A stretch of 38,749 nt of DNA. Source: Candidatus Woesearchaeota archaeon (lineage in GTDB: Archaea; Nanobdellota; Nanobdellia; Woesearchaeales; DATGWN01). Where the stretch lies: assembly GCA_047603125.1 (NCBI GenBank), contig JBLKOU010000006.1, positions 1-38,749 on the forward strand, read 5' to 3'. Shown piece after piece: positions 8,900-31,762 of this stretch. The position numbers were made by a program, and so were the translations under genes. The notes beneath the pieces were generated by a model that was given only the letters and a program-made list of their open reading frames with translations, had not been told where the DNA came from and ran no database searches. The first letter of the stretch is position 1, and every line of letters starts with the position of its first letter.

Positions 8900-9040
8900 G
8901 GTGTTATTCAAAAAATAAGAAAAAGAGCACCTTGCAGCAAAGTCAGAAAATTTGGCGATTGTTTGTAGACGAATTTTCGCACCATTCTCAAAGCGGGACT
9001 CTTGAGCAAAATCTGCGTGCTCTTTTTTGCAAATAAAGAC
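8900..9040 (+). mobile_element. MITE-like element, family A, copy A1 (decayed ends)
   Basis: Core AAAGAGCACCTTGCAG...CTCAAAGCGGGACTCTTGAGC...CTGCGTGCTCTTT shared with A2/A3; TIRs degenerate; flanks TTGTTATAACA (8889-8899) and TTGCCACAACA (9041-9051) differ only by C/T. Boundaries approximate. Confidence 0.75.
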
Positions 9041-9085
9041 TTGCCACAACAACCCTTATAAATCCAACTTCCTAGAATGAGTAGT

Positions 9086-9751
9086 ATGGCAATTATTATG
9101 ATTAATTTTAAGACATATGCAACATCTGTCGGAATAGATAGCGCACTCTTAGCAAATATTTGTAACGAAGTGGCAGATTTAACACAAAGTGATATTCGCA
9201 TTTGTGTCTCGCCAACAGATATCTATAAAGTCTCACAGCAGATACATATCCCTGTGTACTCGCAACATGTTGACGGGGTTGAGTTTGGTGCACATACGGG
9301 AAAAATTCTTGCAATTGATATAAAAGAGCATGGCGGACAGGGTTCGTTAATTAATCACAGTGAAGATCAATATTCAATTGAGCAAATTCGTAAAGCCGTA
9401 CTAGCATGTCGTGAGAGTGCTCTGACAAGCGTGGTGTGTGCAGATTCTATTGAGACAGTCAAACAAGTCATTGACTTTGAGCCTGATTGCATTGCATATG
9501 AGCCACCAGAATTAATTGGGGGGGATATTTCTGTTACGACTAAGCCTGAAGTCATTAAAGAACTCGTTCATTTAGTAAAAGAACAAAAACCAAATATGAA
9601 AATTCTTGTTGGCGCGGGTGTAAAAACCGGAAAAGATGTTGCTTTAGCAACCAAACTTGGTTGCCACGGTGTTTTGCTTGCGTCCGGTGTGACAAAATCA
9701 CCCGATCCGCATGGCGCGCTTTTGAACTTACTTAGCGGTATTCAAAAGTGA
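9086..9751 (+). CDS. tpiA: Triosephosphate isomerase (archaeal short type)
   Basis: INFKTY, YSQHVD, GAHTG, LINHSE, IAYEPPELIG, GAGV, GVLLASGV. Confidence 0.95.
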   Translation: MAIIMINFKTYATSVGIDSALLANICNEVADLTQSDIRICVSPTDIYKVSQQIHIPVYSQHVDGVEFGAHTGKILAIDIKEHGGQGSLINHSEDQYSIEQIRKAVLACRESALTSVVCADSIETVKQVIDFEPDCIAYEPPELIGGDISVTTKPEVIKELVHLVKEQKPNMKILVGAGVKTGKDVALATKLGCHGVLLASGVTKSPDPHGALLNLLSGIQK

Positions 9752-10313
9752 GTCTGTCACGAACTGTTGGGAATCCGCAATTTAGATTGACACAGCTTAT
9801 GTTAAAAGGGATATGATACCTTCCTCTCTCAATTTTTGAGCCTCTTGGGATGTTAACAACGACTACAAACGCTTCATCCCGACCAAACTCGATTGTTTGT
9901 CTGTCTGGAAAGGGGAAGATTGTTAAGTCGCTTGCTTCCCTTGGCTCTATTTCCCAGCCTAGTTCGCTCAAATTCATTTTCACATTATCTCGATAAAAAC
10001 CAGTCACTTCTGAGTGATCGACTTGAACTTGTAATGTAATATCGCTTTGGTTAATAGAATTTCTAATGACTAGACCAAAACGAAATGTTCCGATTTGATT
10101 AATTCGTTGATTTTGATCAATAATGCAATATCGTTGATTTTGACATTGAAGGCGAGAAAGGTCTTCTACGAAATTTCTTCCAAGGTCTTCCAAACTCGAA
10201 TCGGCAGCACTTAGCATAGTATTGACTATAAAGAGTCCTCCGGAGAAAACGACAATTGCTAAAATAAATGTTACAAGAAAGTTTACAGAAAGTTCTATTG
10301 CTTTTTTATTCAT
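9732..10313 (-). CDS. Class III signal-peptide (type IV pilin-like) protein
   Basis: MNKKA/IELSVNFLVTFILAIVVF prepilin-type N-terminus; SD GAGGTG upstream. Confidence 0.7.
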   Translation of the reverse strand: MNKKAIELSVNFLVTFILAIVVFSGGLFIVNTMLSAADSSLEDLGRNFVEDLSRLQCQNQRYCIIDQNQRINQIGTFRFGLVIRNSINQSDITLQVQVDHSEVTGFYRDNVKMNLSELGWEIEPREASDLTIFPFPDRQTIEFGRDEAFVVVVNIPRGSKIERGRYHIPFNISCVNLNCGFPTVRDRLTFEYR

Positions 10314-10345
10314 TCACACACCTCAAAAAAGAAAATAAAAAAAGT

Positions 10346-10576
10346 TTAGCGTATGATTTCAAACTCACGAATGAGAAGGAAAATCAATAATGCTAAGATA
10401 ACAAACCCTGATATTAAAAACCCAAGACCCTGCCATGCTAAATAGGACGGATCGACAGTGAGTTTGTAAAATCCAAGTCCTAATATGACTAGTCCTACTA
10501 AGAGGAGTTTGTCAAATACAACTTTGAATAACTCGAATTCTTCATGTTGTGTTAAACGTTTTTTCATCTTTGCCAT
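10346..10576 (-). CDS. Small two-TM membrane protein
   Basis: 76-aa ORF with two hydrophobic helices between two pilin-like genes. Confidence 0.7.
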   Translation of the reverse strand: MAKMKKRLTQHEEFELFKVVFDKLLLVGLVILGLGFYKLTVDPSYLAWQGLGFLISGFVILALLIFLLIREFEIIR

Positions 10577-10580
10577 TGTT

Positions 10581-11189
10581 CTAGGACCTCACATTCATCG
10601 TTAGTTGTATCGTTTCATAAATTTTTGGTTCCGCCCCATCTTCTAAGCAGTTTCGTAAATTAGAACTGTCTTCACAACCTGTCAAAGCACTTTGCTCTAC
10701 TGCAGCAAATGTACAAATATATGAGTTTCTTCCTATATACAACTGTCTTAAATCGGAATCACTTATGTCGATAAAAATAATAAAGCCGGAACTGGAAGAA
10801 ACATCTACTGTGGCGGGTTGCGCTCGCACTGTTGGTAGTTGGGAGGAATTAACGTAATTATCTCCTGATTGAACACTCTGACAGCTCAAAAATGTAAATG
10901 TAGTATTTTCAGCAGTAAATGTATTTCTGTTATAATATCCGATTTCGAATCGTTCTTGACCACCTGTTTTAACTTCAATATCTCGACTGAGTGTGAGGGG
11001 TCTATCAGCACTTGGAGGTTGTCCTAAATCTCCGATATCTATTTCGCCCACTGTTCCTCCAGCAATGTCAAAAATCATATTTGTCAATGTCAAACCAAGC
11101 CCGAGCATCACAAACGCCAGAACAACAACAACGATGGCATTAATCGATAAACTCATCGAACCTTTTGTAAATTGTAATTTTTGTTTCAT
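10581..11189 (-). CDS. Class III signal-peptide (pilin-like) protein
   Basis: TKGS/MSLSINAIVVVVLAFVMLGLGL N-terminus, followed by a beta-rich extracellular region. Confidence 0.65.
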   Translation of the reverse strand: MKQKLQFTKGSMSLSINAIVVVVLAFVMLGLGLTLTNMIFDIAGGTVGEIDIGDLGQPPSADRPLTLSRDIEVKTGGQERFEIGYYNRNTFTAENTTFTFLSCQSVQSGDNYVNSSQLPTVRAQPATVDVSSSSGFIIFIDISDSDLRQLYIGRNSYICTFAAVEQSALTGCEDSSNLRNCLEDGAEPKIYETIQLTMNVRS

Positions 11190-11339
11190 GTATTGTCAAC
11201 CTCTTTTGTGTAAATATACTTAAATAGTATACAAATTGCCATACTGATTTATAAATATTGCGACATTGGGCGCGAAACATTTATATATCAAAACAAAACA
11301 CAACTAGAACATAACCAATTATTCTTTGGGGTAGAAATT

Positions 11340-11969
11340 ATGACAGAACAAGTCAAAACTGGAACAACAACTATAGGTATTGTCTGCTCGGATGGTATAG
11401 TCATTGCTGCAGATAAGCGAGCAACGGCAGGTAATTTTATTGCACGATCTGATATTGAAAAAGTCATTCCAATCAATGACACAATGGTTTTAACAATCGC
11501 AGGTGTTGTTTCAGACGCACAGAAATTCATTAAGTATATCAAAGCTGAAACACGGCTTAATGAATTACAAAAAAGTCGAAAAAACACACCTAAAGAAGTT
11601 GCAAATCTAATTGGAAACCTCACATATGGTTACTTACGATACCAAGGAGCAATCACACACTTTTTGTTTGCGGCAAAGGGATTAAATGGTGATTATGAGC
11701 TCTATGACATTACACCCGATGGTGTTGTCTGGAAAATTGATACATATGTTTCAAGTGGCAGCGGAAGTATCTTTGCATTGAGTGTATTAGATGATCAGTA
11801 TAAAAAAGGATTGAGCATTCAAGATGGTCTCAAGCTTGTCAAACAAGCAATTAATGCGGCGCTTCGACGAGACAGTGCATCTGGAAATGGTGCGGATATC
11901 TACACAATTACAGAACAAGGCGTCAAACATGAACAAACGGTAACCGTTTCAACTGAGTTACCACAATAA
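11340..11969 (+). CDS. psmB: Proteasome beta subunit
   Basis: Propeptide ending KTG/TTTIG, AADKRAT, SGSGS, RRDSASG. Confidence 0.95.
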   Translation: MTEQVKTGTTTIGIVCSDGIVIAADKRATAGNFIARSDIEKVIPINDTMVLTIAGVVSDAQKFIKYIKAETRLNELQKSRKNTPKEVANLIGNLTYGYLRYQGAITHFLFAAKGLNGDYELYDITPDGVVWKIDTYVSSGSGSIFALSVLDDQYKKGLSIQDGLKLVKQAINAALRRDSASGNGADIYTITEQGVKHEQTVTVSTELPQ

Positions 11970-11976
11970 TATTCAG

Positions 11977-13881
11977 ATGAGTTCTCAAGAAATAATCAAG
12001 GAAATTCTCAAAAAACTTCCGGACAACCTCATAAGTCAGGCGGTTTTTGAAGGAGCAAACATTGTCTTATATACTAAGGATGAGCAGTTTTACATAAATG
12101 AACAACAAAAAATTAAAGATATTGTTAATACGATAAAAAAACGAATTGAGCTGCGCCCCGATCCTGATGTCTGCATGAATCAAGAAAAAGCAAAAGACAT
12201 TATTACAAAACTCATGCCTGATGATGCAGAGCATGGAAATATCATTTTTGATCCAAGAAGAAGTATTGTTATCATTGAATCTGAAAAGCCTGGCCAGATT
12301 GTAGGAAAATCAAAAGGAATTTTACAACAAATTAGAGAACAGACACTTTGGGTGCCGACAATTCGACGAACGCCAATTATACGAAGTCAGATTACTGAAG
12401 ATATTCGAAGTGTTTTGTATGAGAACTCGGACGAGCGACGAAAATTCTTGCATAAAACTGGTGAACGAATTTACAATGGGTGGATTCGTGGAAAAAAAGA
12501 AGGATGGATTCGCATGAGTTATCTAGGAAGTGGTCGCCAAGTTGGACGAAGTTGTTTATTATTACAAACAAATGAATCGCGTATTTTACTTGATTGCGGT
12601 GTTGATCCTTCAGGAACAGAGGATGCTTATCCAATGCTTGAAGCGCCAGAATTTAAATTAGAAGATATTGATGCAATCATTGTCTCACACGCACATTTAG
12701 ATCATGTTGGTTTTTTACCCTATCTCTTTAAGTTTGGATATAGGGGTCCTGTATATTGTACGGAACCAACGCGGGACATTATGGCACTTTCATTAATAGA
12801 TTATGTGAAAATTCAAAATATGGAAAATGAAAAACCACTCTTTTCTATGGATGACATTCGTGAATTGATAAAACATACTATTTCATTAAATTATGAGGAA
12901 GTAACTGATATTACGCCCGATGTACGTATTACACTTCATAACGCGGGGCATATTTTAGGTTCTGCGGTGACACATCTTCATGTAGGCAATGGTCTTCATA
13001 ATATCGTGTATACGGCAGATATTAAGTATGGAAAAACACGACTACTTGATCCTGCAATTAATAAATTTACACGCTGTGAAACGATGCTTGTAGAAGCAAC
13101 ATATGGTGGAAAGACAAATTCGCTTCCAGGAAGGGAAGAAGCAGAACAGGAGTTTGCAGATATTATTAAACACACTGTTGAGCAGAAAAAAGGAAAAGTG
13201 CTCGTTCCAGTCTTAGGTGTAGGGCGTGCACAAGAAATTATGCTTATTTTAGAAAACCTTGTTCGTGAAGGGAAACTACAAGAAATCCCGGTTTATATCG
13301 ATGGGATGGTCTGGGATATGACTGCGATTCATACGGCATACCCTGAATACTTAAATGCGCAGGTTCGAAAACAAATTTTTCAAAAAGATACGAATCCATT
13401 CTTGCATACAATGTTTAAGCGTGTCGGTTCTTACAAAGAACGAATGGATTTAATTCAAAATGAAGGTCCTTGTGTTATCCTTGCAACGAGTGGTATGCTT
13501 GTAGGTGGTGCATCAGTTCAGTATTTCAAACATTTAGCTGAAGATAAAAAGCACAGTCTTGTATTTGTTTCCTATCAGGGTGAAGGTTCACTTGGTCGAC
13601 GTGTTCAACGCGGTGAAAAAATCATTACGGTGGCAAGTGGTGGTTCTAAACCAGAGCAGCTTGATATTAAAATGGAGCTGTTTACGTTAGATGCATTTAC
13701 AGGACACAGTGACCGAACAGAATTGATGAATTATATTAAACGATGTAATCCTATGCCTCGACGTGTACTCACAAATCACGGAGAAATTACGCGGTGTTTG
13801 GATTTAGCAGCAAGCATACATAGGAGTTATCGTATAGAAACAATGGCGCCAAAGAATCTGGATGCTGTTCGTTTGCGCTGA
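11977..13881 (+). CDS. fttA: Beta-CASP ribonuclease aCPSF1 (transcription termination factor FttA)
   Basis: N-terminal KH region, GRSC, SHAHLDH, NAGHILGS, ATSGML, FTGHSDR, NHGE; conserved adjacency to psmB. Confidence 0.95.
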   Translation: MSSQEIIKEILKKLPDNLISQAVFEGANIVLYTKDEQFYINEQQKIKDIVNTIKKRIELRPDPDVCMNQEKAKDIITKLMPDDAEHGNIIFDPRRSIVIIESEKPGQIVGKSKGILQQIREQTLWVPTIRRTPIIRSQITEDIRSVLYENSDERRKFLHKTGERIYNGWIRGKKEGWIRMSYLGSGRQVGRSCLLLQTNESRILLDCGVDPSGTEDAYPMLEAPEFKLEDIDAIIVSHAHLDHVGFLPYLFKFGYRGPVYCTEPTRDIMALSLIDYVKIQNMENEKPLFSMDDIRELIKHTISLNYEEVTDITPDVRITLHNAGHILGSAVTHLHVGNGLHNIVYTADIKYGKTRLLDPAINKFTRCETMLVEATYGGKTNSLPGREEAEQEFADIIKHTVEQKKGKVLVPVLGVGRAQEIMLILENLVREGKLQEIPVYIDGMVWDMTAIHTAYPEYLNAQVRKQIFQKDTNPFLHTMFKRVGSYKERMDLIQNEGPCVILATSGMLVGGASVQYFKHLAEDKKHSLVFVSYQGEGSLGRRVQRGEKIITVASGGSKPEQLDIKMELFTLDAFTGHSDRTELMNYIKRCNPMPRRVLTNHGEITRCLDLAASIHRSYRIETMAPKNLDAVRLR

Positions 13882-13999
13882 TTGCTTAGGTTTTTGTGAT
13901 GATTCTTGTATTTACGTAAGCAATAGTGTTTATTGAGAGTTTCGCGGGTATAATACCTCGGACTTTTGTTATTACAAAATTCTCACACATTTTCACAAC

Positions 14000-14194
14000 G
14001 GATTTGTGTAAAAAATTGAAATTTTATTTTACAGCAATATTACGATTGATTCGGACTCGCGTATCTTGCCGACGAGGCGCTGCATATTTTCGGATTTTCA
14101 TCCTCAAGTTTGAAAGAAGCTTTCAAGCAATCGCGCCATGTCGTAATAGTGCATCAAGGTAATATTGCTTATTTTTTTTAATTTACACAAACCT
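14000..14194 (-). mobile_element. MITE-like element, family B, copy B1
   Basis: Near-identical reverse complement of 27704-27901; imperfect TIRs GGATTTGTGTAAA / TTTACACAAACCT; flanked by TTTCACAAC at 13991-13999 and 14195-14203. Confidence 0.85.
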
Positions 14195-14203
14195 TTTCAC
14201 AAC

Positions 14204-14356
14204 GGCTTCATCCAATAATTGTTTTCAAAAAAGAGCACGCAGATTTTGCTCAAGAGTCCCGCTTTGAGAAGTATGCGAAAATTTAGTTGCAGACAATCAC
14301 TAAATTCTCTGATTTTACTGCAAGGTGCTCTTTTTTCTTATTTATTGGATGAAGCC
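14204..14356 (-). mobile_element. MITE-like element, family A, copy A2 (best preserved)
   Basis: Perfect 15-bp TIR GGCTTCATCCAATAA / TTATTGGATGAAGCC; perfect 9-bp direct repeat TTTCACAAC at 14195-14203 and 14357-14365. Confidence 0.9.
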
Positions 14357-14404
14357 TTTCACAACCAAACATTTATAAACCCCTAATAAATCACACATAT
14401 AATT

Positions 14405-15637
14405 ATGAATTTTTATGAACTTGGATTATCAGATTCTATCTGTCAAAAATTAGAACAATACAACATCACCGAACCAACGCGTATACAAGAGCAAGTTATC
14501 TCTCAAGTATTAAAAGGAAGGGACATACTTGCCCAATCAGCAACAGGTTCGGGTAAAACAATTGCATTTGGTGGGCCGATCATTGATATGATTGGAACAA
14601 ATAAACAACCAATGCAAGCACTTATTTTAGCTCCGACAAGAGAACTTGCCGAACAAATTAAACAGAGTTTGCAAACATTAACCAAAATTCCTATTTGTAC
14701 AGTTTATGGCGGTGTAGGATATCAACCACAAATTGATGGATTACGACGCTCGCCAATTGTTGTTGCAACGCCAGGTCGATTTATTGACTTGCTTGAGCAA
14801 GGACATGTGCAAACTGAAAATTTAAAGCAATTTGTTTTAGATGAAGCGGACCGTATGCTTGACATGGGTTTTTTTCCAGACATTGAGAAAATTATATCAT
14901 ATTTGCCTGAGAAAAAATTTCAAGCGATGTGTTTTTCAGCAACATACCCTCCTCAGATTACTGGATTAACAAAGAAAATTCTCACAGAACCATTCTCTGC
15001 TAAAGGAACACCGCAAGTAGATCCGACAAAATTAAAGCAGTACTATTATGAAGTGCCCCAAAATTTGAAATTTTCATTGCTTGTGCACTTATTAGAAAAA
15101 GAACATGCGGGTTCAGCAATGGTTTTTACAAACTCAAAACGTATGGCCGATATGCTTGCGTCTCAATTAAAGACAAAGAACATAAAAGCATCTGCGATAC
15201 ATGGTGGTCTTACACAGGCAAAAAGAAAACATATTTTAGAACAATTTCAAAAGCAAAAAACATTTGCGCTTATTTGTACAGATGTTGCAGCTCGTGGACT
15301 TGATATTCCTGATGTTTCCCATGTCTATAATTATGATATTCCTGCGGATTCTAAGCAATATATTCATAGAATCGGCCGAACAGCACGTGCTGGAAAGGAT
15401 GGTATGGCAGTAAGTATACTTGCTCAAAGAGATTATGAGAATTTTGATAAAATACTCCAATTTGAGCGTGTGAAAGTAGACGTTTTGGAACGACCGTATT
15501 TGCAAAAAGAGCATCTTCCAAGTACGCCATCTCGAGATTCACCACGTGGTGGAGATCGTCAAAGAGGTTCTCGACGACCACCCCAAAGGTCAAATAATAA
15601 TCGTGGTTCATATCGACGTCAAAGCAATCGTCGGTAA
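14405..15637 (+). CDS. DEAD-box RNA helicase
   Basis: ATGSGKT, LAPTRELA, TPGR, DEAD, SAT, ARGLD, HRIGRTAR; Arg/Gly/Ser-rich tail. Confidence 0.95.
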   Translation: MNFYELGLSDSICQKLEQYNITEPTRIQEQVISQVLKGRDILAQSATGSGKTIAFGGPIIDMIGTNKQPMQALILAPTRELAEQIKQSLQTLTKIPICTVYGGVGYQPQIDGLRRSPIVVATPGRFIDLLEQGHVQTENLKQFVLDEADRMLDMGFFPDIEKIISYLPEKKFQAMCFSATYPPQITGLTKKILTEPFSAKGTPQVDPTKLKQYYYEVPQNLKFSLLVHLLEKEHAGSAMVFTNSKRMADMLASQLKTKNIKASAIHGGLTQAKRKHILEQFQKQKTFALICTDVAARGLDIPDVSHVYNYDIPADSKQYIHRIGRTARAGKDGMAVSILAQRDYENFDKILQFERVKVDVLERPYLQKEHLPSTPSRDSPRGGDRQRGSRRPPQRSNNNRGSYRRQSNRR

Positions 15638-15703
15638 TTTTGCTATCTACTTTAATGCCTTTTTTTGGCAAATTTTTTTAAACAGTGCACTTATGTTCAT
15701 AGT

Positions 15704-16177
15704 ATGGGATTGGATGTAAAGAAGTATCTTAAACAAATAAACATTTCTTTTATAGTATTCACTCATCCACCAGTCTATACTGTTGAGCAAGCAAAGGAGT
15801 GTAGCAAAGATATAAGAGGAGTACATTCTAAAAATTTGTTTCTCAAAAACAAACATTCTACAAAATTTTATCTTGTGATAATTCCTGACGATCAAAAAGC
15901 GAATATGAAAGAACTTGGGTTTTTAGCAGGAGATTCGTTAACATTTGCAAGTGAGCGTAATTTAAAAGACGTTCTTGGGTTAACGCCGGGTGCAGTTTCA
16001 CCATTTGGTTTGATTAATAACAAAGACAATGCTGTGGAATTGCTTATTCATAAAGCAATATGGGAATCGAAATATTTGAGCTTTCATCCCAACATAAACA
16101 CAGAAACTTTGGAGCTTAAAGGTGAAGATTTTCATAGATTCGTTGAATTACTGGGGATAAAGTATTATATAGTTTAA
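15704..16177 (+). CDS. YbaK/ProX-family aminoacyl-tRNA editing deacylase (PrdX-like)
   Basis: HPPVYTVE, SKNLFLK, LTFAS, LGLTPGAVSPFGL, FHPNIN. Confidence 0.9.
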   Translation: MGLDVKKYLKQINISFIVFTHPPVYTVEQAKECSKDIRGVHSKNLFLKNKHSTKFYLVIIPDDQKANMKELGFLAGDSLTFASERNLKDVLGLTPGAVSPFGLINNKDNAVELLIHKAIWESKYLSFHPNINTETLELKGEDFHRFVELLGIKYYIV

Positions 16178-16191
16178 AAGTTCGCTGTTGT

Positions 16192-18888: not shown

Positions 18889-18934
18889 AACGAATTTAGA
18901 CCACTCTTCCTTTAAAAATACTTATAACTATCCT

Positions 18935-19324: not shown

Positions 19325-19343
19325 GATAATCACACCTCTTAAT

Positions 19344-19362
19344 GATAATGAAAATCATTAAC
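19344..19362. promoter_or_regulatory. Fur-family operator (Fur box)
   Basis: GATAATGAAAATCATTAAC matches the classical Fur box GATAATGATAATCATTATC at 17/19; lies within the larger palindrome 19341-19365 and abuts TATA 19364-19371 between fur and the divergent operon. Confidence 0.85.
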
Positions 19363-19393
19363 ATTTAAAAAGTATTCGTTATTACTTCAAGAT

Positions 19394-24084: not shown

Positions 24085-24145
24085 ATAGTCTATTTATCTG
24101 GCTTTCTCTTTAAAAATATTCTTCTACACTCTCAAGAGACATCCA

Positions 24146-24898
24146 TTATACGATTTGATATTGTTTGAGGTTTCGTGTGGCATGACGACAAATCCATTGT
24201 GTGCTTGGGTGTTTTGAGGCCTTCCAAGCTTTTAGAAGTGGGAGTGTTTGTTTTGGGTTTACTTTGAGATAATCGGCAATACAATTTGCAACTGATTTTT
24301 GCACAAATTTGACTGGGTCTTCTTTGATAAGTTCAAGTATAAAAAAAATAGGTTTTGGATTGTCAATAAAGACATCAAGTTTTGTCGCCCAAGGAAGTTT
24401 AGGACGCAAACCCTCGCTTGCTAATCGTCGAAGATGAAAATCTGATGATTGTGCCCAGCGTTTTATTTTCTGAAGAGTTTTTTTTGGATGATGTCGTATA
24501 AAAGGGCGAATTGCATATTCACCGGTACAACGCTGTGTGATTTGCTCGATTGCATTAAGTGAGATGTCGACATGTTCTAACCCATAGATTTCTACAAATT
24601 TTGCAACAGGCAAGACCCAGTAGTATTGTGTGAACATACCAGTTTGATTGGGATTTGGTTCTCCTAAAATCCGTGTTAAGATGTTGATTGCTTGTGGATA
24701 TTCTTTTACGAGTGTACGTTTGAGTGCATTTGCATGTAATTCTACCCGTTGTGTGTATGTGAGTGGTCTGTATTGTTGTTTTATTGTTTGGACATATGTT
24801 TCCTGATCAAATTGCGGGTATACTTGAAGAATCTTTTCGCTAAGAAGGATTGCTAAATTTACTCCAAACCATTTTGTGATTCCGGTCTCCGTAGTCAT
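24146..24898 (-). CDS. DNA alkylation repair protein (AlkC/AlkD HEAT-like glycosylase)
   Basis: ITQRCTGEYAIRPFI, HLRRLASEGLRPKLPW, FVQKSVAN. Confidence 0.85.
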   Translation of the reverse strand: MTTETGITKWFGVNLAILLSEKILQVYPQFDQETYVQTIKQQYRPLTYTQRVELHANALKRTLVKEYPQAINILTRILGEPNPNQTGMFTQYYWVLPVAKFVEIYGLEHVDISLNAIEQITQRCTGEYAIRPFIRHHPKKTLQKIKRWAQSSDFHLRRLASEGLRPKLPWATKLDVFIDNPKPIFFILELIKEDPVKFVQKSVANCIADYLKVNPKQTLPLLKAWKASKHPSTQWICRHATRNLKQYQIV

Positions 24899-24942
24899 AT
24901 CGTTATACAGGAAGCAAGAATTAAAAATGTTTTGTCAAAGAA

Positions 24943-25137
24943 GTCTTTATTCAAAAAAGTGTAATGAAGAGCACCTTGCAGTAGGATTAGAAAATTTGGT
25001 GATTGTTTGAAAGCTTCTTTCAAACTTGAGGATGAAAATCCGAAAAGATGTAAGCAAATTTTCGCACGATTCTCAAAGCGGGACTCTTGAGCCAAATCTG
25101 CGTGCTCTTCTTTGAAAAATAATCGGTGGATGAAGTC
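24943..25137 (+). mobile_element. MITE-like element, family A, copy A3 (carries a family-B module)
   Basis: Ends GTCTTTATTCA / TGGATGAAGTC; flanks GTCAAAGAA (24934-24942) and ATCAAAGAA (25138-25146), 8/9; segment 25001-25046 identical to 27769-27814. Confidence 0.85.
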
Positions 25138-25213
25138 ATCAAAGAAAACATATGAGTAAATACAATTTGTTTTATTAAAGAAAAGAGATAAAAAAATAAA
25201 AGGGAAAAAGTGG

Positions 25214-25522
25214 TTAATCCACCATTTCAATTTCGATGTTCAAACCTTTAGGAATTTCGACACGCATTACCATTCGAAGCGCTCGTTCATCAACACCCAT
25301 ATCGATGAGTCTTTTATGAATTCGCATTTCATATCGTTCCCAACTTGCTTTTCCTTCACCATCTGGCGATTTTCGCGTAGTGATTTTGAGCTTTTTTGTA
25401 GGTAACGGAATGGGGCCTCGTACATCAACACCAGTTTTTTCAGCAATGGACTTTATGTAGTCACAAACCTGATTGATCTTGTCAATGTCGGTGCTTACTA
25501 ATTTAATACGTGCTTTTGGCAT
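25214..25522 (-). CDS. rps10: 30S ribosomal protein uS10
   Basis: [32 protein letters not shown]. Confidence 0.97.
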
Positions 25523-25531
25523 TGTTGATCC

Positions 25532-26818
25532 CTAAATGTTTTTCTTTTTTACAGCCATACACATTCCTGCAGCAACTGTTGAACCTGAGTCTCGAATTGC
25601 AAATCGTGACATTTGAGGAATCTGTTTTGTTTCTTCAATAACTACAGCTTGAACCGGTTTTAATCGGACAATTGCAGCGTCACCATTCTTAATAAAGTCA
25701 GGGTTTTCTTCAACAACTTCTCCTGTTGCAGGATTGAGTTTCTTCTCAATTGCGACAAATTGACAAGCAATCTGTGCTGTGTGAATGTGGAAAACCGGCG
25801 TGTAACCAACAGTAATAACTGATGGGTGGTTGAGTACAACGATTTGTGCTGTGAATTCTTCTGCAACAGTTGGTACATTGTTTGTGTGTCCAACAACGTC
25901 TCCTTTTGCAAGATCTTTTGCTCCAAATCCTCGTGCGGAAAATCCGATGTTATCTCCAGGACCTACTTCTTGAACTGATTCGTGATGCATTTCAATAGAT
26001 TTAAGTTCTGCATTGACACCTTTTCCTTCACGTCCAGGAACACCAATTAATTTATCGCCAACTTTCATAATACCTGTTTCAACTTTTCCAACTGGAACCG
26101 CTCCAATACCTGTGATGTTATAGACATCTTGAATTGGTAAGCGAAGTGGCAAGTCAACTGGTCGTTGAGCCGGTTCTAAGCTATTAATTGCTTCAAGAAT
26201 TGTTGGGCCTGTGTACCAAGACATATTTTCTGATTTTTTCACAACATTGTCTCCTTTTAAGGAAGCAACTGGGATGAATTTCACAGTGTCTGGTTTGTAT
26301 CCAACAGATTTAAGTAATGTTGTAACTTCTTCTTTAACTTCGTTAAAACGCTTTTCGCTCCAGTCTTGCAAGTCCATTTTGTTAACTGCAATGATCATTT
26401 GCGTAACACCAAATGTTTTCGATAAGAAAACGTGCTCTCGTGTTTGTGCATTAATTCCGTCATTTGCTGCTACAACAAGTACACCTGCATCTGCTTGTGA
26501 TGCTCCTGTAATCATGTTTTTAACAAAATCCTTGTGACCTGGTGCATCAATAACTGTAAATTCGTATTTATCAGTTTCAAATTTCTTGTGTGCTAGGTCA
26601 ATTGTAACCCCTCGTTCTTGTTCTTCTTTCAAGTTGTCCATGACGTATGCAAATTCGAAACCAGATTTACCGAGTTGTTCAGCTTTATCTTTTAATTTTC
26701 GCATTGCTTGTTCGTCAATGTTACCTGAGTCGAACATCAAACGGCCTACCGATGTCGATTTTCCATGGTCTACGTGACCAATGAATATCAAGTTCATATG
26801 TTCTTTCTTTTTTGCCAT
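25532..26818 (-). CDS. tuf: Elongation factor 1-alpha (aEF1A)
   Basis: [41 protein letters not shown]. Confidence 0.98.
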
Positions 26819-26947
26819 TTGCTGCCTCCATTTTCATAAATGGTAAACTATGGTGAGTGAAACATTGGCCTGTTTATAAAGATTATGGTTAAAAGCTTGC
26901 GAGAAACTTGCCTGAAAGTGAATCTTTGCTCAGATGATGGCGCGACA

Positions 26948-27658
26948 TTAGTCATGCACAAATGCAATATCTGCGACAAGGGCCAAATGGTCTGAAAATG
27001 CAACATCGCATGTCTGAAATTGCTTAATTATTATATCAGAAGTATGGAGTATGTAGTCAATGCACTTTTTCGGATTATATCGGGGAAAGGTTGGCTGGTG
27101 GTCTTTAGGTTTATAAGCAATCTGCTCAAAGAATGTCGAGAGAGTTTCAGGAGTAGTATTAAAGTCTCCAATGATGATTGCACCTTTTTTTGGAATAATT
27201 GTTGAAAGCTCTTGCAATTGCTGCTCTCGTGTCTTTTTTTGTAGTGCTAGATGAACTAAAAATACGGATAATGGTTTTGGTGCTTGTATATTCATTTCTA
27301 TGACAAGACGCTTCATACCTTTTGATAAATAATGTTTTTTATATGTACATTTGTGTTTACTGACAACACCATTTGCTTGTTTTTTTAAAATGGGAAGTTT
27401 AAGAAGCGATCCTGTGTATTTTGTGTCAAAAAATTGGTAATCGAAGACATTTCGAAAAAAAAGCGTTTGATCCCCTCGGATGAAGGATCCAGTATCTATT
27501 TCCACTAGTCCTATAATATCGGGGTCCTGCTCAAGAATCCATTGTTCAATTGCAGCCATATGTTTTTTTGTTTGAAAAAATTTCCAAAATTGTAGATAGT
27601 CACTTGTTTTGCCAGAAAGTCCTTGGCCATAACAGAGATTATAACAAACAATTCGCAT
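26948..27658 (-). CDS. Endonuclease/exonuclease/phosphatase (EEP) family protein
   Basis: MRIVCYN, PDIIGLVE, VHL, IIGDFN, IDYI, SDHLAL; start 30 bp after TATA 27688. The longer ORF-track start runs into the MITE. Confidence 0.88.
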   Translation of the reverse strand: MRIVCYNLCYGQGLSGKTSDYLQFWKFFQTKKHMAAIEQWILEQDPDIIGLVEIDTGSFIRGDQTLFFRNVFDYQFFDTKYTGSLLKLPILKKQANGVVSKHKCTYKKHYLSKGMKRLVIEMNIQAPKPLSVFLVHLALQKKTREQQLQELSTIIPKKGAIIIGDFNTTPETLSTFFEQIAYKPKDHQPTFPRYNPKKCIDYILHTSDIIIKQFQTCDVAFSDHLALVADIAFVHD

Positions 27659-27703
27659 ACCCTCTTTTCTTGAAAATTCATTTAAAAATGTTTGCATATG
27701 TTC

Positions 27704-27901
27704 GGGTTTTGTGTAAAAATTAAAAGAAATAAGCAATATTACCTTGATGCCTCATTACGACATGGCGCGATTGTTTGAAAGCTTCTTTCAAACTTGAGGA
27801 TGAAAATCCGAAAATATACAGTGCCTCGTCGGCAAGATACGCGAGTCCGAATTAATCGTAATATTGCTGTAAAATAAAAATTCGATTTTTTACATAAACC
27901 C
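27704..27901 (+). mobile_element. MITE-like element, family B, copy B2
   Basis: Ends GGGTTTTGTGTAAAAA / TTTTTTACATAAACCC; perfect 9-bp direct repeat CATATGTTC at 27695-27703 and 27902-27910; internal inverted repeat AGCAATATTA / TAATATTGCT. Confidence 0.9.
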
Positions 27902-27991
27902 CATATGTTCAGCTCCATCAAAAAATAAGTAAAAATAACATTTGCAGTAAAATAAGAAGTCTAAAAAAATATTGAAGAAAAAAGAAAAAAT

Positions 27992-30151
27992 TTACTCCAA
28001 TCCCTTTCGAGATCGGATTTGTTGGGAAACTTTCTTTTGCAATTCGTCTGGAAGTCGCTCAAAGTTCTGATCAACAAGTGAAGATGTTCCTCGTCCACCC
28101 GTTGCACTTCGAAGTTCGTTTGATAATCCAAACATTTCTGCTACAGGAAGTTTTGCTTTTACAACAACGTGATTTTCTTCTTGAATCATATCCAAGAGTT
28201 GTCCTCGTTTGTTTGAAACAAGCTTTGAAATTTCTCCCATGTAATCAACAGGTCCTTCAAATTGCAATGTTTGTACCGGTTCAAATAGTACAGGATTTGC
28301 AGTTGCAATCGTTCCACGAATACCATCTCGAACAGCCGGATAAACTTGTGCAGGTCCTCGGTGAATTGCATCTTCGTGAAGAACAAGATCATCCAAAATA
28401 ATCTTCATACCAATACATGGTTCATTTGCAACTGGTCCTTTTTTCATAACATCTTCAAACATATCTAAGATAAGTTCGATAATTTCGTTAATTTGAACGA
28501 TACCTCTTGTTGCATCAACAAACATATTTCCATTAATTACAGCTTTAATTTTATCTGCTTCTTTTGCATCCATTCCTGCATCGATATATTTTTGACGAAT
28601 GTCGAGATCTTTTTTCTTATATCGGTCTTGAGGAACTTCCCCAGTTTTAATCAAATGCTGAATTTCTTGTGAGAGAGGTTCACATCGAAAGTACAATTTA
28701 TTGTGTTTGTTTGGTGTTTTTCCTTCTGCAAGCTCACCTGTTTTTGTAATAGTCTCTCGGTAAACAACAATTGGTGGTGATGTTTTTACTTTCACATTCT
28801 TTTCTGTTTTAATTCGATTTTCAATGATTTCTAAGTGAAGTTCTCCCATACCCGAAATTAAGTGCTCACCTGTTTCTTCGTTAATTTGAATTTGAACTCC
28901 TGGGTCTTCTTTATTTACGATTTGCAAGACTTCAATTAATTTAGGAAGGTCGGATGCACTCTCAGCTTCAATTGCTTTTGTGATAACTGGATCAAAGATA
29001 TGTTTGAGTTCTTCAAATGGTTCTGTTTCAACACTACTAATAGTCTCCCCTGGAAATGATTTTAATCCTGCGATTCCAACGATGTTTCCTGATCGAGCAC
29101 CTGTAATGATTTCTCGTTTTGCACCATTTCTAATGAATACTTGCTGTATTCTTCCCTTCGTTCCTGGACTCATACTTTGAAATACTTCCATTCCTTTTTT
29201 GAGTGAGCCGCCAAATACACGACCTGTCGCAATTTCACCCGCTTGTGGGTCTACTTCAATTTTAGTAACGACGAAGACGAGTGGTTTATTTGGGTCACAG
29301 TCAAGAAGTCCTTTACCGACATCGGATTCTTTATCTCCGTGCCAGAGTCGTGGGATTCTATATTCTGCAGCCTGTTTTGGTGTAGGGTGATGTTTAATGA
29401 CTGAGTTAAGAACACACTCGTGAATTGGTGCTTGTTCTTTGAGCTTTTTATATTCGTCAGAGCCGTCACTATATGCTTCAATAATTTGTTTGAATGAAAT
29501 GCCCTTATCCTGCATAAATGGAATCGAAAGTCCCCAGTTATGAAATGCAGAACCAAACATAACTGAACCATCATCAACGCGAACTTTCCATTTTTCAGCA
29601 GTTTCATCCCCTGCAATTTTACGAATAAGCTCATTTACGCTTGCAATTGTTTTAATAAATCGTTGTTGCATTGCTTCTGGCGTTAATTTTAATTCTTTGA
29701 TCAAACGATCAACTTTGTTAATAAATAAAATTGGCTTTACACGTTCACGAAGTGCTTGTGTGAGAACTGTTTCAGTTTGAGGCATAATTCCTTCAACTGC
29801 ACAACATAAAACTACTGCACCATCAACTGCACGCATGGCTCGAGTAACGTCTCCACCAAAATCAACGTGTCCTGGTGTATCGATGAGATTAATAAGATAC
29901 TCGTTACCTTTAAATGTGTGAAGCATTGAAACCGATGCTGAATCAATAGTGATTCCTCGCTCAGCTTCATCTGCGTGAAAATCTAATTGTCTTGCCGAAC
30001 CTGCAAGCTCAGAAGACATCATCCCTGCTCCAAAGAGCAAGTTATCTGAAAATGTTGTTTTTCCATGATCTATGTGTGCACAAATCGCAATATTTCGAAT
30101 GTTATCTGGATGCGACATTGCCTCTACTATTCTATCACTTCGTGTAGCCAT
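27992..30151 (-). CDS. fusA: Elongation factor 2 (aEF-2)
   Basis: AHIDHGKTT, ERGITI, DTPGHVDFGG, NKVD, GMGELHLE, diphthamide-site HEDAIHRGPAQ. Confidence 0.98.
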   Translation of the reverse strand: MATRSDRIVEAMSHPDNIRNIAICAHIDHGKTTFSDNLLFGAGMMSSELAGSARQLDFHADEAERGITIDSASVSMLHTFKGNEYLINLIDTPGHVDFGGDVTRAMRAVDGAVVLCCAVEGIMPQTETVLTQALRERVKPILFINKVDRLIKELKLTPEAMQQRFIKTIASVNELIRKIAGDETAEKWKVRVDDGSVMFGSAFHNWGLSIPFMQDKGISFKQIIEAYSDGSDEYKKLKEQAPIHECVLNSVIKHHPTPKQAAEYRIPRLWHGDKESDVGKGLLDCDPNKPLVFVVTKIEVDPQAGEIATGRVFGGSLKKGMEVFQSMSPGTKGRIQQVFIRNGAKREIITGARSGNIVGIAGLKSFPGETISSVETEPFEELKHIFDPVITKAIEAESASDLPKLIEVLQIVNKEDPGVQIQINEETGEHLISGMGELHLEIIENRIKTEKNVKVKTSPPIVVYRETITKTGELAEGKTPNKHNKLYFRCEPLSQEIQHLIKTGEVPQDRYKKKDLDIRQKYIDAGMDAKEADKIKAVINGNMFVDATRGIVQINEIIELILDMFEDVMKKGPVANEPCIGMKIILDDLVLHEDAIHRGPAQVYPAVRDGIRGTIATANPVLFEPVQTLQFEGPVDYMGEISKLVSNKRGQLLDMIQEENHVVVKAKLPVAEMFGLSNELRSATGGRGTSSLVDQNFERLPDELQKKVSQQIRSRKGLE

Positions 30152-30153
30152 AT

Positions 30154-30729
30154 TTATTCACCTTGTCTGTATAATAATTCTTCATCAATTCGTTTCCAAC
30201 TATGAATTTCTTGATTAGTAAACCAAAGTCCGATTTCTCTTTTTGCATCATCTTGAGAGCTGGATGCATGAATGAGATTTTGCAGTGCTCGTTTGGAAGT
30301 GTCTGCGAGTTGATATGTATCAAACGAATAATCGCCTCGTATTGTTCCGGGAGCACTTTGTTCAGGACTCGTATCTCCAACGAGCTTTCGCACATGGAGT
30401 ATTGCATTGTGCCCTTCTAGGACTAATGCAACAACAGGAGAAAGTCGAAGAAAATCAATTAATGATTTTCGAACGGTTAATCCCAATTCTTTATTTGATT
30501 GTTCAATACTCATCCCTTTTAACTTGTAGTTTTTTCGTTGTTTTTCACCAACTGTTTCTAACCAGTTTTCGTCTGCAATATAATGATCACCTGCAAGTTT
30601 TTCATCAGGGTATGCCATTTTCATTGCAACAAGCTTTAAACCACAGCGCTCAAAGCGCGTTATAATTTCACCAATTAACCCTCGCTGAACCGCATCAGGT
30701 TTTAAGAGAATGAGTGTTTGTTCAATCAT
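30154..30729 (-). CDS. ndk: Nucleoside diphosphate kinase
   Basis: KPDAVQRGLIGEII.RFE, PGTIRGD, NLIHAS. Confidence 0.95.
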   Translation of the reverse strand: MIEQTLILLKPDAVQRGLIGEIITRFERCGLKLVAMKMAYPDEKLAGDHYIADENWLETVGEKQRKNYKLKGMSIEQSNKELGLTVRKSLIDFLRLSPVVALVLEGHNAILHVRKLVGDTSPEQSAPGTIRGDYSFDTYQLADTSKRALQNLIHASSSQDDAKREIGLWFTNQEIHSWKRIDEELLYRQGE

Positions 30730-30920
30730 TGTTTTTTCGTAGTCTCCTTAATTTTATGATATTCTTTTGTCCACTTTGTTTCACGTGGTTTTCGACCAAG
30801 CTTGACCATGTTTTTTTCTGCTTTTCTATCAGCAAAATACCACACTCGGCCATCTTTTCGAATATACATAATACCTCGTCCTTGAGGTATTTCTTTTCCG
30901 CTAAAACTGCATTGTACCAT
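30726..30920 (-). CDS. rpl24e: 50S ribosomal protein L24e
   Basis: CSFSGKEI..GRGIMYIRKDG...KPR..KWT; conserved L7Ae-S28e-L24e-ndk order. Confidence 0.93.
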   Translation of the reverse strand: MVQCSFSGKEIPQGRGIMYIRKDGRVWYFADRKAEKNMVKLGRKPRETKWTKEYHKIKETTKKQ

Positions 30921-30924
30921 TTTT

Positions 30925-31176
30925 TTACCTATTAAGTGGGCGAGCTTCTATTTCTGTCTCGCGAAGCATAATCGTATCTCCAAGTCGAACGGGGCCTTTG
31001 ACATTTCGTCGAATTATTTTATTAGCATCCCGACCTTCAAGAATTTTGACACGAACTTGTGTTGCTTCTCCTCGTGTTCCAGTTCGACCAATAATTTCTT
31101 CCACAGTACTTGTTACTGCTTCGCTAAATTGAACTGAACCTCCGGATGTTTTTTGTTTATCAGCTTTGGGAGCCAT
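30925..31176 (-). CDS. rps28e: 30S ribosomal protein S28e
   Basis: [21 protein letters not shown]...[11 protein letters not shown]...ETE. Confidence 0.95.
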
Positions 31177-31178
31177 GC

Positions 31179-31520
31179 TTATTCACCTTGCAAGAATTTT
31201 GCTAAATCGTCTTTTGCATTTGCTTCATCAATAACTGCAACTGCTGTTGTTCCAACAGTTAAACCTGCTGCTGTTCCTAATTCTTCTTTTGTACTTACAG
31301 TAAAACAAGGAATGTTTTTTTCTTCACAGATAAGTGGAATATGCATAACTAATTCTTTTGGTGAAACATCGCTTGCAATAACTACTGCTTTTGCGACACC
31401 GCGTTCTGCTGCCTTTGTAACTTCGTTGGTACCCTTTTTGAGTTTTCCATTTGCTTTGACAACTTCGATAATTCGAAGCATATCTTCAATTTGTTGTTCA
31501 TTGAGTTCTTGTTGAGCCAT
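31179..31520 (-). CDS. rpl7ae: 50S ribosomal protein L7Ae
   Basis: [38 protein letters not shown]. Confidence 0.96.
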
Positions 31521-31552
31521 TTTGTACCCTCACAAACCGAGAAGATTCTCTT

Positions 31553-31579
31553 CTCTCAGGCATAGTGCCGTCATTAAGG
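31553..31579 (-). promoter_or_regulatory. Candidate k-turn in the rpl7ae 5' leader
   Basis: Minus strand CCUU-AAU-GA-C-GGCA-cua-UGCC-U-GA-GAG: 3-nt bulge, tandem GA/AG pairs, closing stems. Confidence 0.6.
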
Positions 31580-31626
31580 TTATCCAGTTGGAAATCGCAG
31601 GGTTTTATAAAGGTTATTGTGGGTTG

Positions 31627-31742
31627 GGTTTCAATCTAAAAAGAAAAAAGAAGAGCATCTTGGAGCAAAGTTAGAAAATTTGGTGATTATTAACAGCTAA
31701 ACCTGCGTGCTCTTTTTTGAAAAATAATTATCGGATAAAGTC
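31627..31742 (+). mobile_element. MITE-like element, family A, copy A4 (internally deleted)
   Basis: Keeps AAGAGCATCTTG.AGCAAAGTTAGAAAATTTGGTGATT and CTGCGTGCTCTTTTTTGAAAAATAATT; flanks TGTGGGTTG (31618-31626) and TGCGGGTTC (31743-31751), 7/9. Confidence 0.75.
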
Positions 31743-31762
31743 TGCGGGTTCGAGGTGGGCGT

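Follow-up and report, generated by a model that had tools for sequence, protein, structure and literature searches.

Short mobile elements abut the upstream edge of host core promoters in a woesearchaeal genome: candidate promoter-guided transposition

The window, a 38,749-nt stretch of DNA from a Candidatus Woesearchaeota archaeon, carries six short elements of two families, A and B, upstream of tpiA, rpl7ae and genes for a DEAD-box helicase, a DNA-alkylation-repair protein and an EEP-family protein (Table 1). Pfam matches of the downstream genes (TIM, L7Ae, DEAD helicase, DNA_alkylation and Exo_endo_phos) agreed with the names given to them in a sequence-only reading of this DNA. The elements have the attributes of MITEs: they are short (119-196 bp, with two composites of ~380 bp), non-coding, bounded by TIRs of ~15 nt, flanked by a 9-bp duplication and multi-copy, with 74 BLAST loci in 1.1 Mb. 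In 21 elements (16 of family A and 5 of family B) the duplication has at most one mismatch in 9 bp. A2 is 100% identical to another locus of the genome (C33:34445-34597) and is therefore a recent insertion.

Table 1. Elements, target duplications and promoters in the window
Feature	Positions	Strand	Details
Decayed family-A MITE A1	8901-9045	.	Upstream of tpiA
tpiA promoter, by A1	9055-9062		TATA CTTATAAA; ATG 9086
Target duplication, copy 1 of three	13991-13999	+	TTTCACAAC
Family-B MITE B1	14000-14194	+	TIR GGATTTGTGTAAAAAA
Target duplication, copy 2	14195-14203	+	TTTCACAAC, between B1 and A2
Family-A MITE A2	14204-14356	+	153 bp; perfect TIR GGCTTCATCCAATAA; duplication match 9/9
DEAD-box helicase promoter	14357-14379	+	Next to A2; TTTCACAAC copy 3 14357-14365; BRE CAAACA 14366-14371; TATA TTTATAAA 14372-14379; ATG 14405
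DNA-alkylation-repair gene promoter	24920-24942	-	Duplication TTCTTTGAC 24942-24934; BRE AAAACA 24933-24928; TATA TTTTTAAT 24927-24920; ATG 24898
A3, family A long form	24943-25137	-	Distal duplication 25138-25146 (8/9)
EEP-family gene promoter	27681-27703	-	Duplication GAACATATG 27703-27695; BRE CAAACA 27694-27689; TATA TTTTTAAA 27688-27681; ATG 27658, 30 nt past TATA start
Family-B MITE B2	27704-27901	-	Distal duplication CATATGTTC 27902-27910 (9/9)
Promoter upstream of rpl7ae	31604-31626	-	Next to A4; duplication CAACCCACA 31626-31618; BRE ATAACC 31617-31612; TATA TTTATAAA 31611-31604
A4, internally deleted family-A MITE	31627-31742	-	Distal duplication 31743-31751 (7/9)

At A2, A3, B2 and A4, four of the five window cases, the order proposed in the sequence-only reading (element end, 9-bp duplication, 6 bp, TATA) was reproduced to the base. 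The A4 element itself extends 27 bases further left than first given. The fifth case, A1, had been placed 14-15 bp before its TATA box, and this did not hold: its TIR-like end at 9045 lies at an offset of 10 from the start of the TATA box at 9055, outside the spacing of the others. In ungapped register with A3 (family D3) the end of A1 falls at 9052, and the gap reaches 15 only if terminal bases were lost.

Across the genome, the distance between elements and promoters was narrowly distributed. For 19 of the 62 family-A ends, a promoter scoring 8 bits or more had its TATA start exactly at offset 16, while every other offset was occupied by at most two ends; the background was 0.29% per random intergenic position and direction (binomial P=1.9e-33). 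When TATA offsets of 15-17 were accepted on at least one flank, a promoter was found for 25 of 31 family-A and 5 of 7 family-B elements, as compared with 1048 of 20000 random intergenic targets (5%). Among elements whose duplication has at most one mismatch, the promoter was present in 15 of 16 for family A, the sixteenth running off its contig, and in 4 of 5 for family B, the one without it being B1, which lies distally in a stack. No TATA signal was seen on the distal flank of the MITEs, and the flank profile showed the one-sided TATA peak 16-23 nt from the element end that had been predicted. The profile also contains the conserved adenines of the BRE, with an A frequency of 0.77 at offset 12 and 0.92 at offset 13. 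This sharp peak at offset 16 supports the earlier suggestion that insertion is guided by position with respect to the promoter and not by a consensus of the duplicated 9-mers.

These are working host promoters, which serve protein genes and a tRNA gene. In this genome the TATA box peaks at -30 from start codons (157 genes versus ~6 per background position). A called ORF starts 29-34 nt past the TATA start at 14 of 22 MITE-adjacent promoters; three more are followed by an ORF at +29 to +31 that escaped calling because it is short or truncated at a contig end, and one drives a tRNA-Arg at +35. Since the TATA box lies outside the duplication and 29-34 nt before the start codon, the promoter is that of the host gene. 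Nothing distinguishes the target profile from that of promoters in general, no further position is conserved, and the accepted TATA variants are those that promoters use (e.g. TTTATAAA, TTTTAAAA, TATATAAA, TTAATAAA and TATAAAAA). Strong motifs next to MITEs were followed by an ORF start more often than intergenic strong motifs in general (16/19 versus 453/783, the latter including 330 look-alikes; Fisher P=0.03), a modest enrichment of real promoters that depends on crude gene calls and on look-alikes that may include promoters of unannotated genes. That the element itself carries the TATA box as an outward promoter, for which adjacency alone speaks, is virtually untenable, given that TATA and BRE lie outside the target duplication, vary between sites like host promoters, keep the genome's normal -30 position, and can be faced by either element end. 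Thus neither of the two outcomes that would have spoken against the initial reading, broad distances or a TATA box belonging to the element, was observed.

Could selection alone have produced this arrangement? In a compact genome, random insertion followed by purifying selection would leave harmless copies upstream of promoters, and in agreement with this the genome is ~86% coding by our ORF calls and no gene is interrupted by a copy. Nevertheless, selection cannot yield one exact offset, and it leaves unexplained the 76-118 bp of unused spacer distal to A3, B2 and B1, the 15 of 16 among the youngest copies, and the exact re-use of the same 9 bp in tandem stacks. In the window stack, TTTCACAAC occurs three times, with the young A2 adjoining the promoter and the older B1 promoter-distal. 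In a second stack (C25:29365-29708), TGTTTTTT(G/A) is found in both promoter-side copies and the third is a decayed remnant only, with a decayed A element on the distal side. Such stacks would arise if renewed insertion at the same promoter re-used the identical 9 bp, leaving the youngest element on the promoter side. We therefore consider selection a very improbable source of the pattern, and we are confident that the transposase sets the position of insertion.

The same habit was found in other archaea. The promoter-edge position was occupied by 10 of 12 MITEs in one other genome (G007) and by 4 of 5 full-length insertion sequences in a further one (G166). Among metagenome insertion sequences, 20 flanks scored 5 bits or more, and in 14 of them the match lay at a single offset, corresponding to an 8-bp duplication followed by 6 bp; with a promoter matrix derived from another organism and many copies with one readable flank, a promoter stood at the expected place in only 15 of 32 copies. 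In GTDB genomes, the position was occupied in all four elements whose TIR and duplication were clean, and at 6 of 8 additional right ends, in Woesearchaeota, Thermoplasmata, Thaumarchaeota/Nitrososphaeria and Thermoproteati. Across these relatives the duplication measures 8 or 9 bp, but duplication and TATA stay 6 bp apart. Since the relatives with 8-bp duplications keep the 6 bp, the invariant is the 6-bp gap, and the fixed 15 bp from the element end that was first proposed has to be replaced. A literature search for a description of this promoter-edge habit in archaea returned none.

Judging from their ends and duplications, families A and B are probably non-autonomous derivatives (MITEs) of IS903-group insertion sequences of the IS5 family. 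The inverted repeat of IS903B (GGCTTTGTTGAATAAATC, plasmid record NZ_CP021742.1) matches 12-13 of 18 bases in seven of the eight MITE ends compared, the exception being one of four family-B ends (9 of 18). The 9-bp duplication, a trait of the IS903 group, is found in both families; some full-length relatives make 8 bp. An IS5-type transposase (PF01609 with N-terminal PF13737) was found in the full-length elements of relatives, and the G166 transposase matched both domains as well as NF033579 (152 bits, cut-off 140), with 24% identity to the IS903B transposase. The autonomous relatives belong to this group and not to the IS1595, IS1, IS256 or IS6 families, which had been suggested as candidates. 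In this genome a PF01609 search gave no match and no transposase gene is assembled; the sole trace of one is at the end of contig C52, where the final 25 residues of an ORF equal such a transposase. Searches that included metagenome insertion sequences and GTDB genomes did not recover an element combining GGCTTCATCC ends with a transposase gene. Because the gene is unassembled here, we infer the mover of both families, which would be a DDE transposase of ~290-306 aa acting in trans.

How would such an enzyme find the promoter? We propose that the archaeal core promoter is its target criterion, and that the complex of transposase and element ends takes hold of the promoter in its cellular state, with TBP/TFB bound to it and bending it. 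The BRE adenines would suit the A-A preference of IS903-type transposases next to the duplication. The promoter-side nick would border the BRE on its upstream side, 6 bp ahead of TATA, and the second nick would lie another 8 or 9 bp upstream. Repair would leave the element flanked by two copies of these 8-9 bp, with the whole promoter still joined to its gene; this holds also for BRE position -7, with which the proximal copy ends. This agrees with the observation, already made in the sequence-only reading, that promoters and genes remain intact.

The landmark might instead be another feature of the promoter, such as the full pre-initiation complex (with RNA polymerase and TFE), the negative supercoiling that transcription generates upstream, or a chromatin-free gap at promoters. 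All targets look like active promoters of leaderless genes or tRNA, and in bacteria the nucleoprotein context of the host steers IS903, as reported for the nucleoid protein H-NS in E. coli (bioRxiv 10.1101/2024.02.16.580519). On the other hand, supercoiling or an open gap would give an insertion zone and not a single base position, the stacks re-use the same 9 bp exactly, and the position follows TATA and BRE, to which TBP and TFB bind. We consider this explanation unlikely.

A much stronger contender, which we hold to be plausible though somewhat short of probable, is that the transposase needs no host protein and recognises naked DNA on one side of the target, either by the BRE/TATA sequence or by how readily it bends. 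Direct read-out is the usual basis of target preference in insertion sequences. IS903 itself reads flanking DNA (target motif WTTYA-N9-TRAAW; PMC2577343, Table 1), which provides a precedent within the family and counts against a TBP/TFB step; the A-A at +3/+4 of TRAAW, directly beside the 9-bp duplication, falls on the conserved BRE adenines of the present targets. The transposases of the relatives are also no longer than the bacterial IS903 transposase, and hence without an extra domain that could act as a tether. In a variant of this explanation, the promoter would serve as a pseudo-end: the inner inverted repeat, with ATAAA at about positions 12-16 counted from the tip, looks like a TATA box placed 10-14 bp away from the cut, and an A/T-rich block lies at ~positions 11-17 in the inverted repeats of all lineages. 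Such mimicry would account for the polarity, the one-sidedness and the fixed distance. However, the inner repeat motifs differ by lineage (AATAAT, AAAAAAT, CATAAAT and ACAATTAAT) while the target stays constant, and the distal flank lacks the symmetric signal expected from a dimer reading both flanks. Moreover, the target profile and TATA variants equal what TBP/TFB accept, with no added conserved position, and harmless intergenic look-alikes seem under-used. The last two observations, together with the steering of IS903 by H-NS in E. coli, make us lean towards TBP/TFB-bound promoter DNA, through a putative contact with the transposase, a reading to which we would give nearly an even chance. 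The broader proposition, that for a widespread archaeal IS903-type clade the core promoter bound by TBP/TFB is the integration landmark, we hold a shade more tentatively.

Several known systems share part of this behavior. In IS903 too, target choice depends on the bases beside the duplication and is influenced by host nucleoprotein. By contrast, its preference is a weak palindrome on both flanks, and many sites are used, whereas the elements described here follow a one-sided, polar signal that extends 14 bp beyond the duplication, is the archaeal core promoter and is present at nearly all young copies; they also live in archaeal hosts, and some relatives make 8-bp duplications. Yeast Ty3 integrates at the start sites of RNA polymerase III, directed by TFIIIB (TBP plus Brf1), and Dictyostelium TRE5-A inserts ~48 bp upstream of tRNA genes. 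The likeness is in the constant spacing from a promoter that TBP and a TFIIB-type factor occupy, repeated here at many unrelated genes, and in a gene-sparing haven within a compact genome. However, Ty3 and TRE5-A are retrotransposons with integrase or target-primed mechanisms and proven protein contacts, whereas the contact proposed here is putative; Ty3 lands at the start site, downstream of TATA, and the present elements upstream of the BRE, with a DDE transposase of cut-and-paste type. Among prokaryotic insertion sequences, the IS1202 family (ISAjo2 relatives) likewise sits at a constant spacing from where a host protein binds, 5 bp from the XerC site at dif/pdif, in one orientation (PMC10132070). 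Its transposase family and landmark are different, and it has one or a few sites per replicon as opposed to hundreds of promoters. Sulfolobus SM1-SM4 are known archaeal MITEs. Like them and Halobacterium MITEHsal (PMC7002104), families A and B are small, non-coding, TIR-bounded, duplication-flanked and multi-copy. MITEHsal also hit genes such as dmsA and bop, and the available text of PMC7002104 reports no promoter-edge targeting for it.

The elements make safe-harbour transposition in archaea a concrete matter that can be tested: a simple one-gene transposon locates the upstream edge of the core promoter to the base, and has hundreds of possible sites. By landing at promoter edges, ~70 mobile copies fit into a 1.1-Mb genome of such coding density with its genes uninterrupted. 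A young copy marks a TATA box and start site, and can be used for promoter mapping in uncultured archaea. Each insertion also splits a core promoter from its former upstream DNA, and the elements may thus rewire regulation. If TBP/TFB were the landmark, this would be an independent invention of the Ty3 strategy, a counterpart of Ty3/TFIIIB among prokaryotic DNA transposons and the first archaeal transposition known to be guided by host transcription factors; it would let elements multiply in very compact genomes without gene breakage, and could become a promoter-directed integration tool for archaea. If naked DNA were read instead, the one-sided target signal would be unusually long for an IS5-family enzyme.

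Beside position, orientation was considered. Five of the six window copies had been described as facing the promoter with the same end; genome-wide, the promoter-facing end was the R-end in 12 cases, the L-end in 7 and both in 3 (P=0.36), which is a weak trend only. Between the two families, A3 carries a core of ~50 bp common to family B, and within family B the identity of B1 and B2 is 93.5%.

Repeat finding and direct reading of the sequence revealed two families of small elements in the window, family A (copies A1 to A4) and family B (copies B1 and B2). The sequence-only reading had proposed that these MITEs sit at a fixed distance upstream of TATA boxes, and the order of element end, 9-bp duplication, 6 bp and TATA-like octamer proved exact for A2, A3, B2 and A4. 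The spacing claimed for A1 could not be upheld: this copy is too decayed to show the rule, with its TIR-like end at position 9045 and the first TATA base at 9055. The names given to the downstream genes agree with Pfam (DEAD helicase, DNA-alkylation repair, EEP nuclease/phosphatase, L7Ae and TIM). With Rfam at gathering thresholds, nothing was matched on the MITEs of the window, where the matches consisted of three tRNAs only. A palindromic core is common to the long family-A copies, family B and a third MITE-like family, and was also found by itself at further loci; it has the appearance of a module moving between MITE families. The third family adjoins some family-A copies (on contigs C29 and C16).

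Features and their locations (C-numbers are contigs of the window's own genome, G000)
Feature	Ends or sequence	Size	Location
MITE family A	GGCTTCATCCAAWAA	two forms, 153 bp and ~194 bp	
MITE family B	GG(R)TTTGTGTAAAAA	~190 bp	
Palindromic core	TTGAAAGCTTCTTTCAAACTTGAGGATGAAAATCCGAAAA	~50 bp	window 25001-25050, 27769-27817, 14083-14132
Third MITE-like family	TAGTTAGCGG.../...GTCGTCGACTA		C42:4042-4237, C52:1-190, C20:10308-10504
Further repeat	gagagtttcgcgggtataatac...		window 13930-13990; C45:218-287, C55:3218-3287, C53:18759-18828
Mirror-case stack			C25:29365-29708
ORF at contig end (L106)			C52:3062-3541
IS903-like element of G166 (complete genome)		991 bp, five copies; 288-aa transposase	
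rpl7ae, TATA start (31611) to ATG (31520)		91 nt	window 31520-31611, minus strand
Rfam tRNA match		108 nt	window 32618-32725
Paralogous genes		898 and 875 aa	window 16192-18888 and 21457-24084, minus strand

In the window's own genome (1.116 Mb, 70 contigs, the window being contig C39), BLAST with the six window copies as queries found 74 merged loci. Crude gene calling yielded 1061 ORFs, which together take up 86% of the genome. TATA-like octamers before start codons numbered 157 at -30, 91 at -29 and 67 at -31, with about 6 elsewhere, a peak suggesting that most mRNAs are leaderless. A matrix of the TATA and the BRE, the region directly before it, was built from 304 such promoters of this genome (BRE C/A-R-A-A-A-N-A, then TTTWTAAA). 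Element ends for the duplications were anchored on the terminal inverted repeats (TIRs); low-complexity filtering loses T-rich duplications. Family-A ends were counted where they departed from the 15-nt TIR at no more than 3 positions; for 31 of these 62 ends the best match within 52 nt scored 8 bits or more. The TATA started at offset 16 from the element end in 19 of the 31 and at offset 17 in 2, and the other ten were scattered with at most 2 per offset; the background is 0.29% per random intergenic position and direction (P = 1.9e-33). Counted by element, 25/31 A and 5/7 B copies have a promoter at offset 15-17 on one flank or both, compared with 1048/20000 random intergenic targets. Where the duplication was intact (at most one mismatch), the promoter was present at 15 of 16 family-A copies, the sixteenth having one flank off the contig, and at 4 of 5 family-B copies, the exception being B1, which lies behind A2 in a stack.

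The promoter beside the MITEs is the host's. TATA and BRE lie outside the duplication, their sequences vary from site to site, and the promoter-side flank profile is the general promoter profile. A promoter match was present at 22 of the 28 TIR-paired family-A elements, and in 14 of these 22 a called ORF starts 29-34 nt after the TATA start. Three further promoters have ORFs at +29 to +31 that are too short or contig-cut for the ORF caller, and one MITE-adjacent promoter drives a tRNA-Arg that starts 35 nt past the TATA. The TATA signal is absent from the far-side flanks; it is thus one-sided and polar, with the element always on the BRE side.

The duplication of families A and B has the same length, 9 bp, as that of IS903. 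The inverted repeat of IS903B, taken from a plasmid record, is GGCTTTGTTGAATAAATC, and 12-13 of its 18 bases matched in seven of the eight MITE ends compared (9 in one family-B end). A PF01609 profile search of the own genome assembly gave no match, and TIR pairs 420-4000 bp apart in it were weak chance pairs only. When nine IS903-like transposases were compared with this genome by tblastn, the sole match was to the last bases of contig C52, where 25 residues are identical to P0001, a 306-aa PF13737+PF01609 transposase from public data, suggesting that such a gene is present in the population, though not assembled. The ORF reaching this contig end begins directly after the upstream gene's stop; its last 25 residues alone equal an IS903-like transposase and the remainder is at most 34% similar. 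Either the contig end is chimeric or the transposase gene is degenerate. By PF13737, IS903-like genes occur in 8 of 301 genomes of the order. The transposase of G166, a related archaeon, scores 152 bits with NF033579 (cut-off 140) and is 24% identical to that of IS903B. The lone PF01609 element of G007, an archaeon of another genus in the same family, was considered as the MITE partner and rejected, its ends (TCAGTATCTCCGAAT) being unrelated.

The same habit was found in other archaea, within two limits: the promoter matrix applied to them was that of the own genome, and for several foreign elements the ends are certain only to within one base. In G166, duplication, 6 bp and TATA follow one another at 4/5 copies, each time at the end of the element that lies closest to the transposase gene's 3' end, and the adjacent promoters have start codons at +29, +30 and +39. 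The MITEs of G007 (214-216 bp) have the same ends as in the own genome, and in 10 of 12 a TATA-like octamer lies at offset 15-16, with an open frame after it at +27 to +34. Among other IS903-like loci of the order, the arrangement is present at L014, L016 and L019; the TATA is not clear at L013 and L020, and L021 offers a single flank only. At L168, a further IS903-like locus, no TATA is seen. A scan of public metagenomes with an alignment of P0001-type transposases yielded 57 loci. When the ends were anchored on the TIR core, 20 of 52 distinct flanks had a match of at least 5 bits; the offset was 15 in 14 of these, 14 and 16 in one each, and different in the remaining four. The promoter was at the expected place in 15 of 32 copies, and none was there at L108, L128, L130, L134, L143 and L148. 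The duplications of these elements are 8 bp long, as with AATTTAGG, which stands at either side in L147/L166; at offset 15 the TATA therefore again follows the duplication and 6 further bp. The same type of scan in GTDB genomes found 46 loci, in Woesearchaeota, Nanoarchaeota, Pacearchaeota, Thermoplasmata, Nitrososphaeria/Thaumarchaeota, Thermoproteati, Micrarchaeota and Bathyarchaeia. Duplication, 6 bp and TATA were present at all 4 elements whose TIRs and duplications are clean, and at 6 of 8 further distinct right ends; of the remaining two, one runs into another IS end after 9 bp and the other is without signal. Since both 8- and 9-bp duplications are followed by 6 bp, what stays constant is the 6-bp gap that separates the duplication from the TATA, with the promoter-side nick always at the edge of the BRE.

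Two loci had 'bacterial' titles: L179 was rejected as a bacterial example because its genome encodes TBP and is therefore archaeal, and L164 lies at a contig end, without a flank. A single 1224-bp IS on four metagenome contigs (L137, L139, L140 and L163) showed swapped half-duplications, with CGATTACAG and CTTTTTCAG on opposite sides in different contigs, as expected from recombination between two copies.

The claim that copies face the promoter with the same family end amounts to a weak trend for family A across the own genome (R end 12, L end 7, both 3; P = 0.36). The MITEs of G007 were oriented 9:3. For full-length elements, the 3' end of the transposase gene more often faced the promoter (G166, 4:0; GTDB set, 8:2; metagenome set, about 13:8 as read by eye; pooled, 25:10, P = 0.017). 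This bias could come from mechanism or from selection.

Selection alone cannot set the position of the copies, because the offset histogram is a single spike, the far-side spacer is left unused (76 bp at A3, 90 bp at B2, 118 bp at B1), the identical 9 bp TTTCACAAC occur three times in the window (on both sides of B1 and again beyond A2), and in a mirror case TGTTTTTT(G/A) occurs in two promoter-side copies, the third being only a decayed remnant. A2 has a 100% identical copy on contig C33, and B1 is 93.5% identical to its nearest kin; B1 is therefore the older insertion, and A2 later re-used the same promoter-side 9 bp. In the mirror case, the far side is taken by a decayed A, and B adjoins the promoter. 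Aimed insertion by the transposase is the sole reading that fits, and very probably the right one.

Other stacks were observed. A further repeat lies directly upstream of B1, so the helicase promoter may hold a three-element stack. At L178, in a Thermoplasmatales MAG, a second IS end (TGCTCTGTTGAAC...) starts exactly 9 bp beyond the IS right end, so that full-length elements are stacked in tandem here as the MITEs are in the own genome. In the left flank of the IS at L109, on a metagenome contig, the end of a full-length TGCTCTGTCGGACAA-type IS is separated by 9 bp from an end of the family-A type (GGCTTCATCCAAAAAA), indicating that family-A MITEs exist elsewhere and stack with this type of IS. 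Contigs from 4 of 8 lake-water runs with the locus, compared with window positions 12000-31999, break at the MITEs; none spans an element, and neither an empty site nor a filled/empty polymorphism was observed.

As to what guides the transposase, it quite possibly reads TBP/TFB-bound promoter DNA. This is supported by the degeneracy of the target, which is exactly that of promoters with no extra conserved base, and by the targets being working promoters. It is also supported by an enrichment of ORF starts: strong MITE-adjacent motifs were followed by one in 16 of 19 cases, compared with 453 real and 330 look-alike among intergenic motifs (P = 0.03), and with called genes only the counts were 14/22 MITE-adjacent versus 332/959 (Fisher, P = 0.0066). 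H-NS steers IS903 in E. coli, according to bioRxiv 10.1101/2024.02.16.580519, which lends further support. Direct reading of the promoter DNA by the transposase is a nearly as likely alternative. The preference of IS903 for TRAAW directly beside the duplication, given in PMC2577343, puts A-A at the position of the BRE adenines; the enzymes are without an extra domain, and the elements' own repeats have an inner, A/T-rich part that appears to resemble a TATA and lies about as far from the cut. Between the two, we lean slightly towards the reading of TBP/TFB-bound DNA. Full-text searches covering mainly openly available papers, PMC7002104 and PMC6640164 among them, revealed no account of archaeal IS or MITEs being aimed at the edge of promoters.

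Three other features of the window were observed. The distance from TATA to ATG of rpl7ae exceeds the leaderless norm of about 30 nt, and could represent a structured leader, for instance for L7Ae autoregulation. A tRNA matched by Rfam and absent from the ARAGORN output is probably an intron-containing tRNA gene. Finally, two large genes on the minus strand are paralogous, with DNA stretches that are 75-79% identical.
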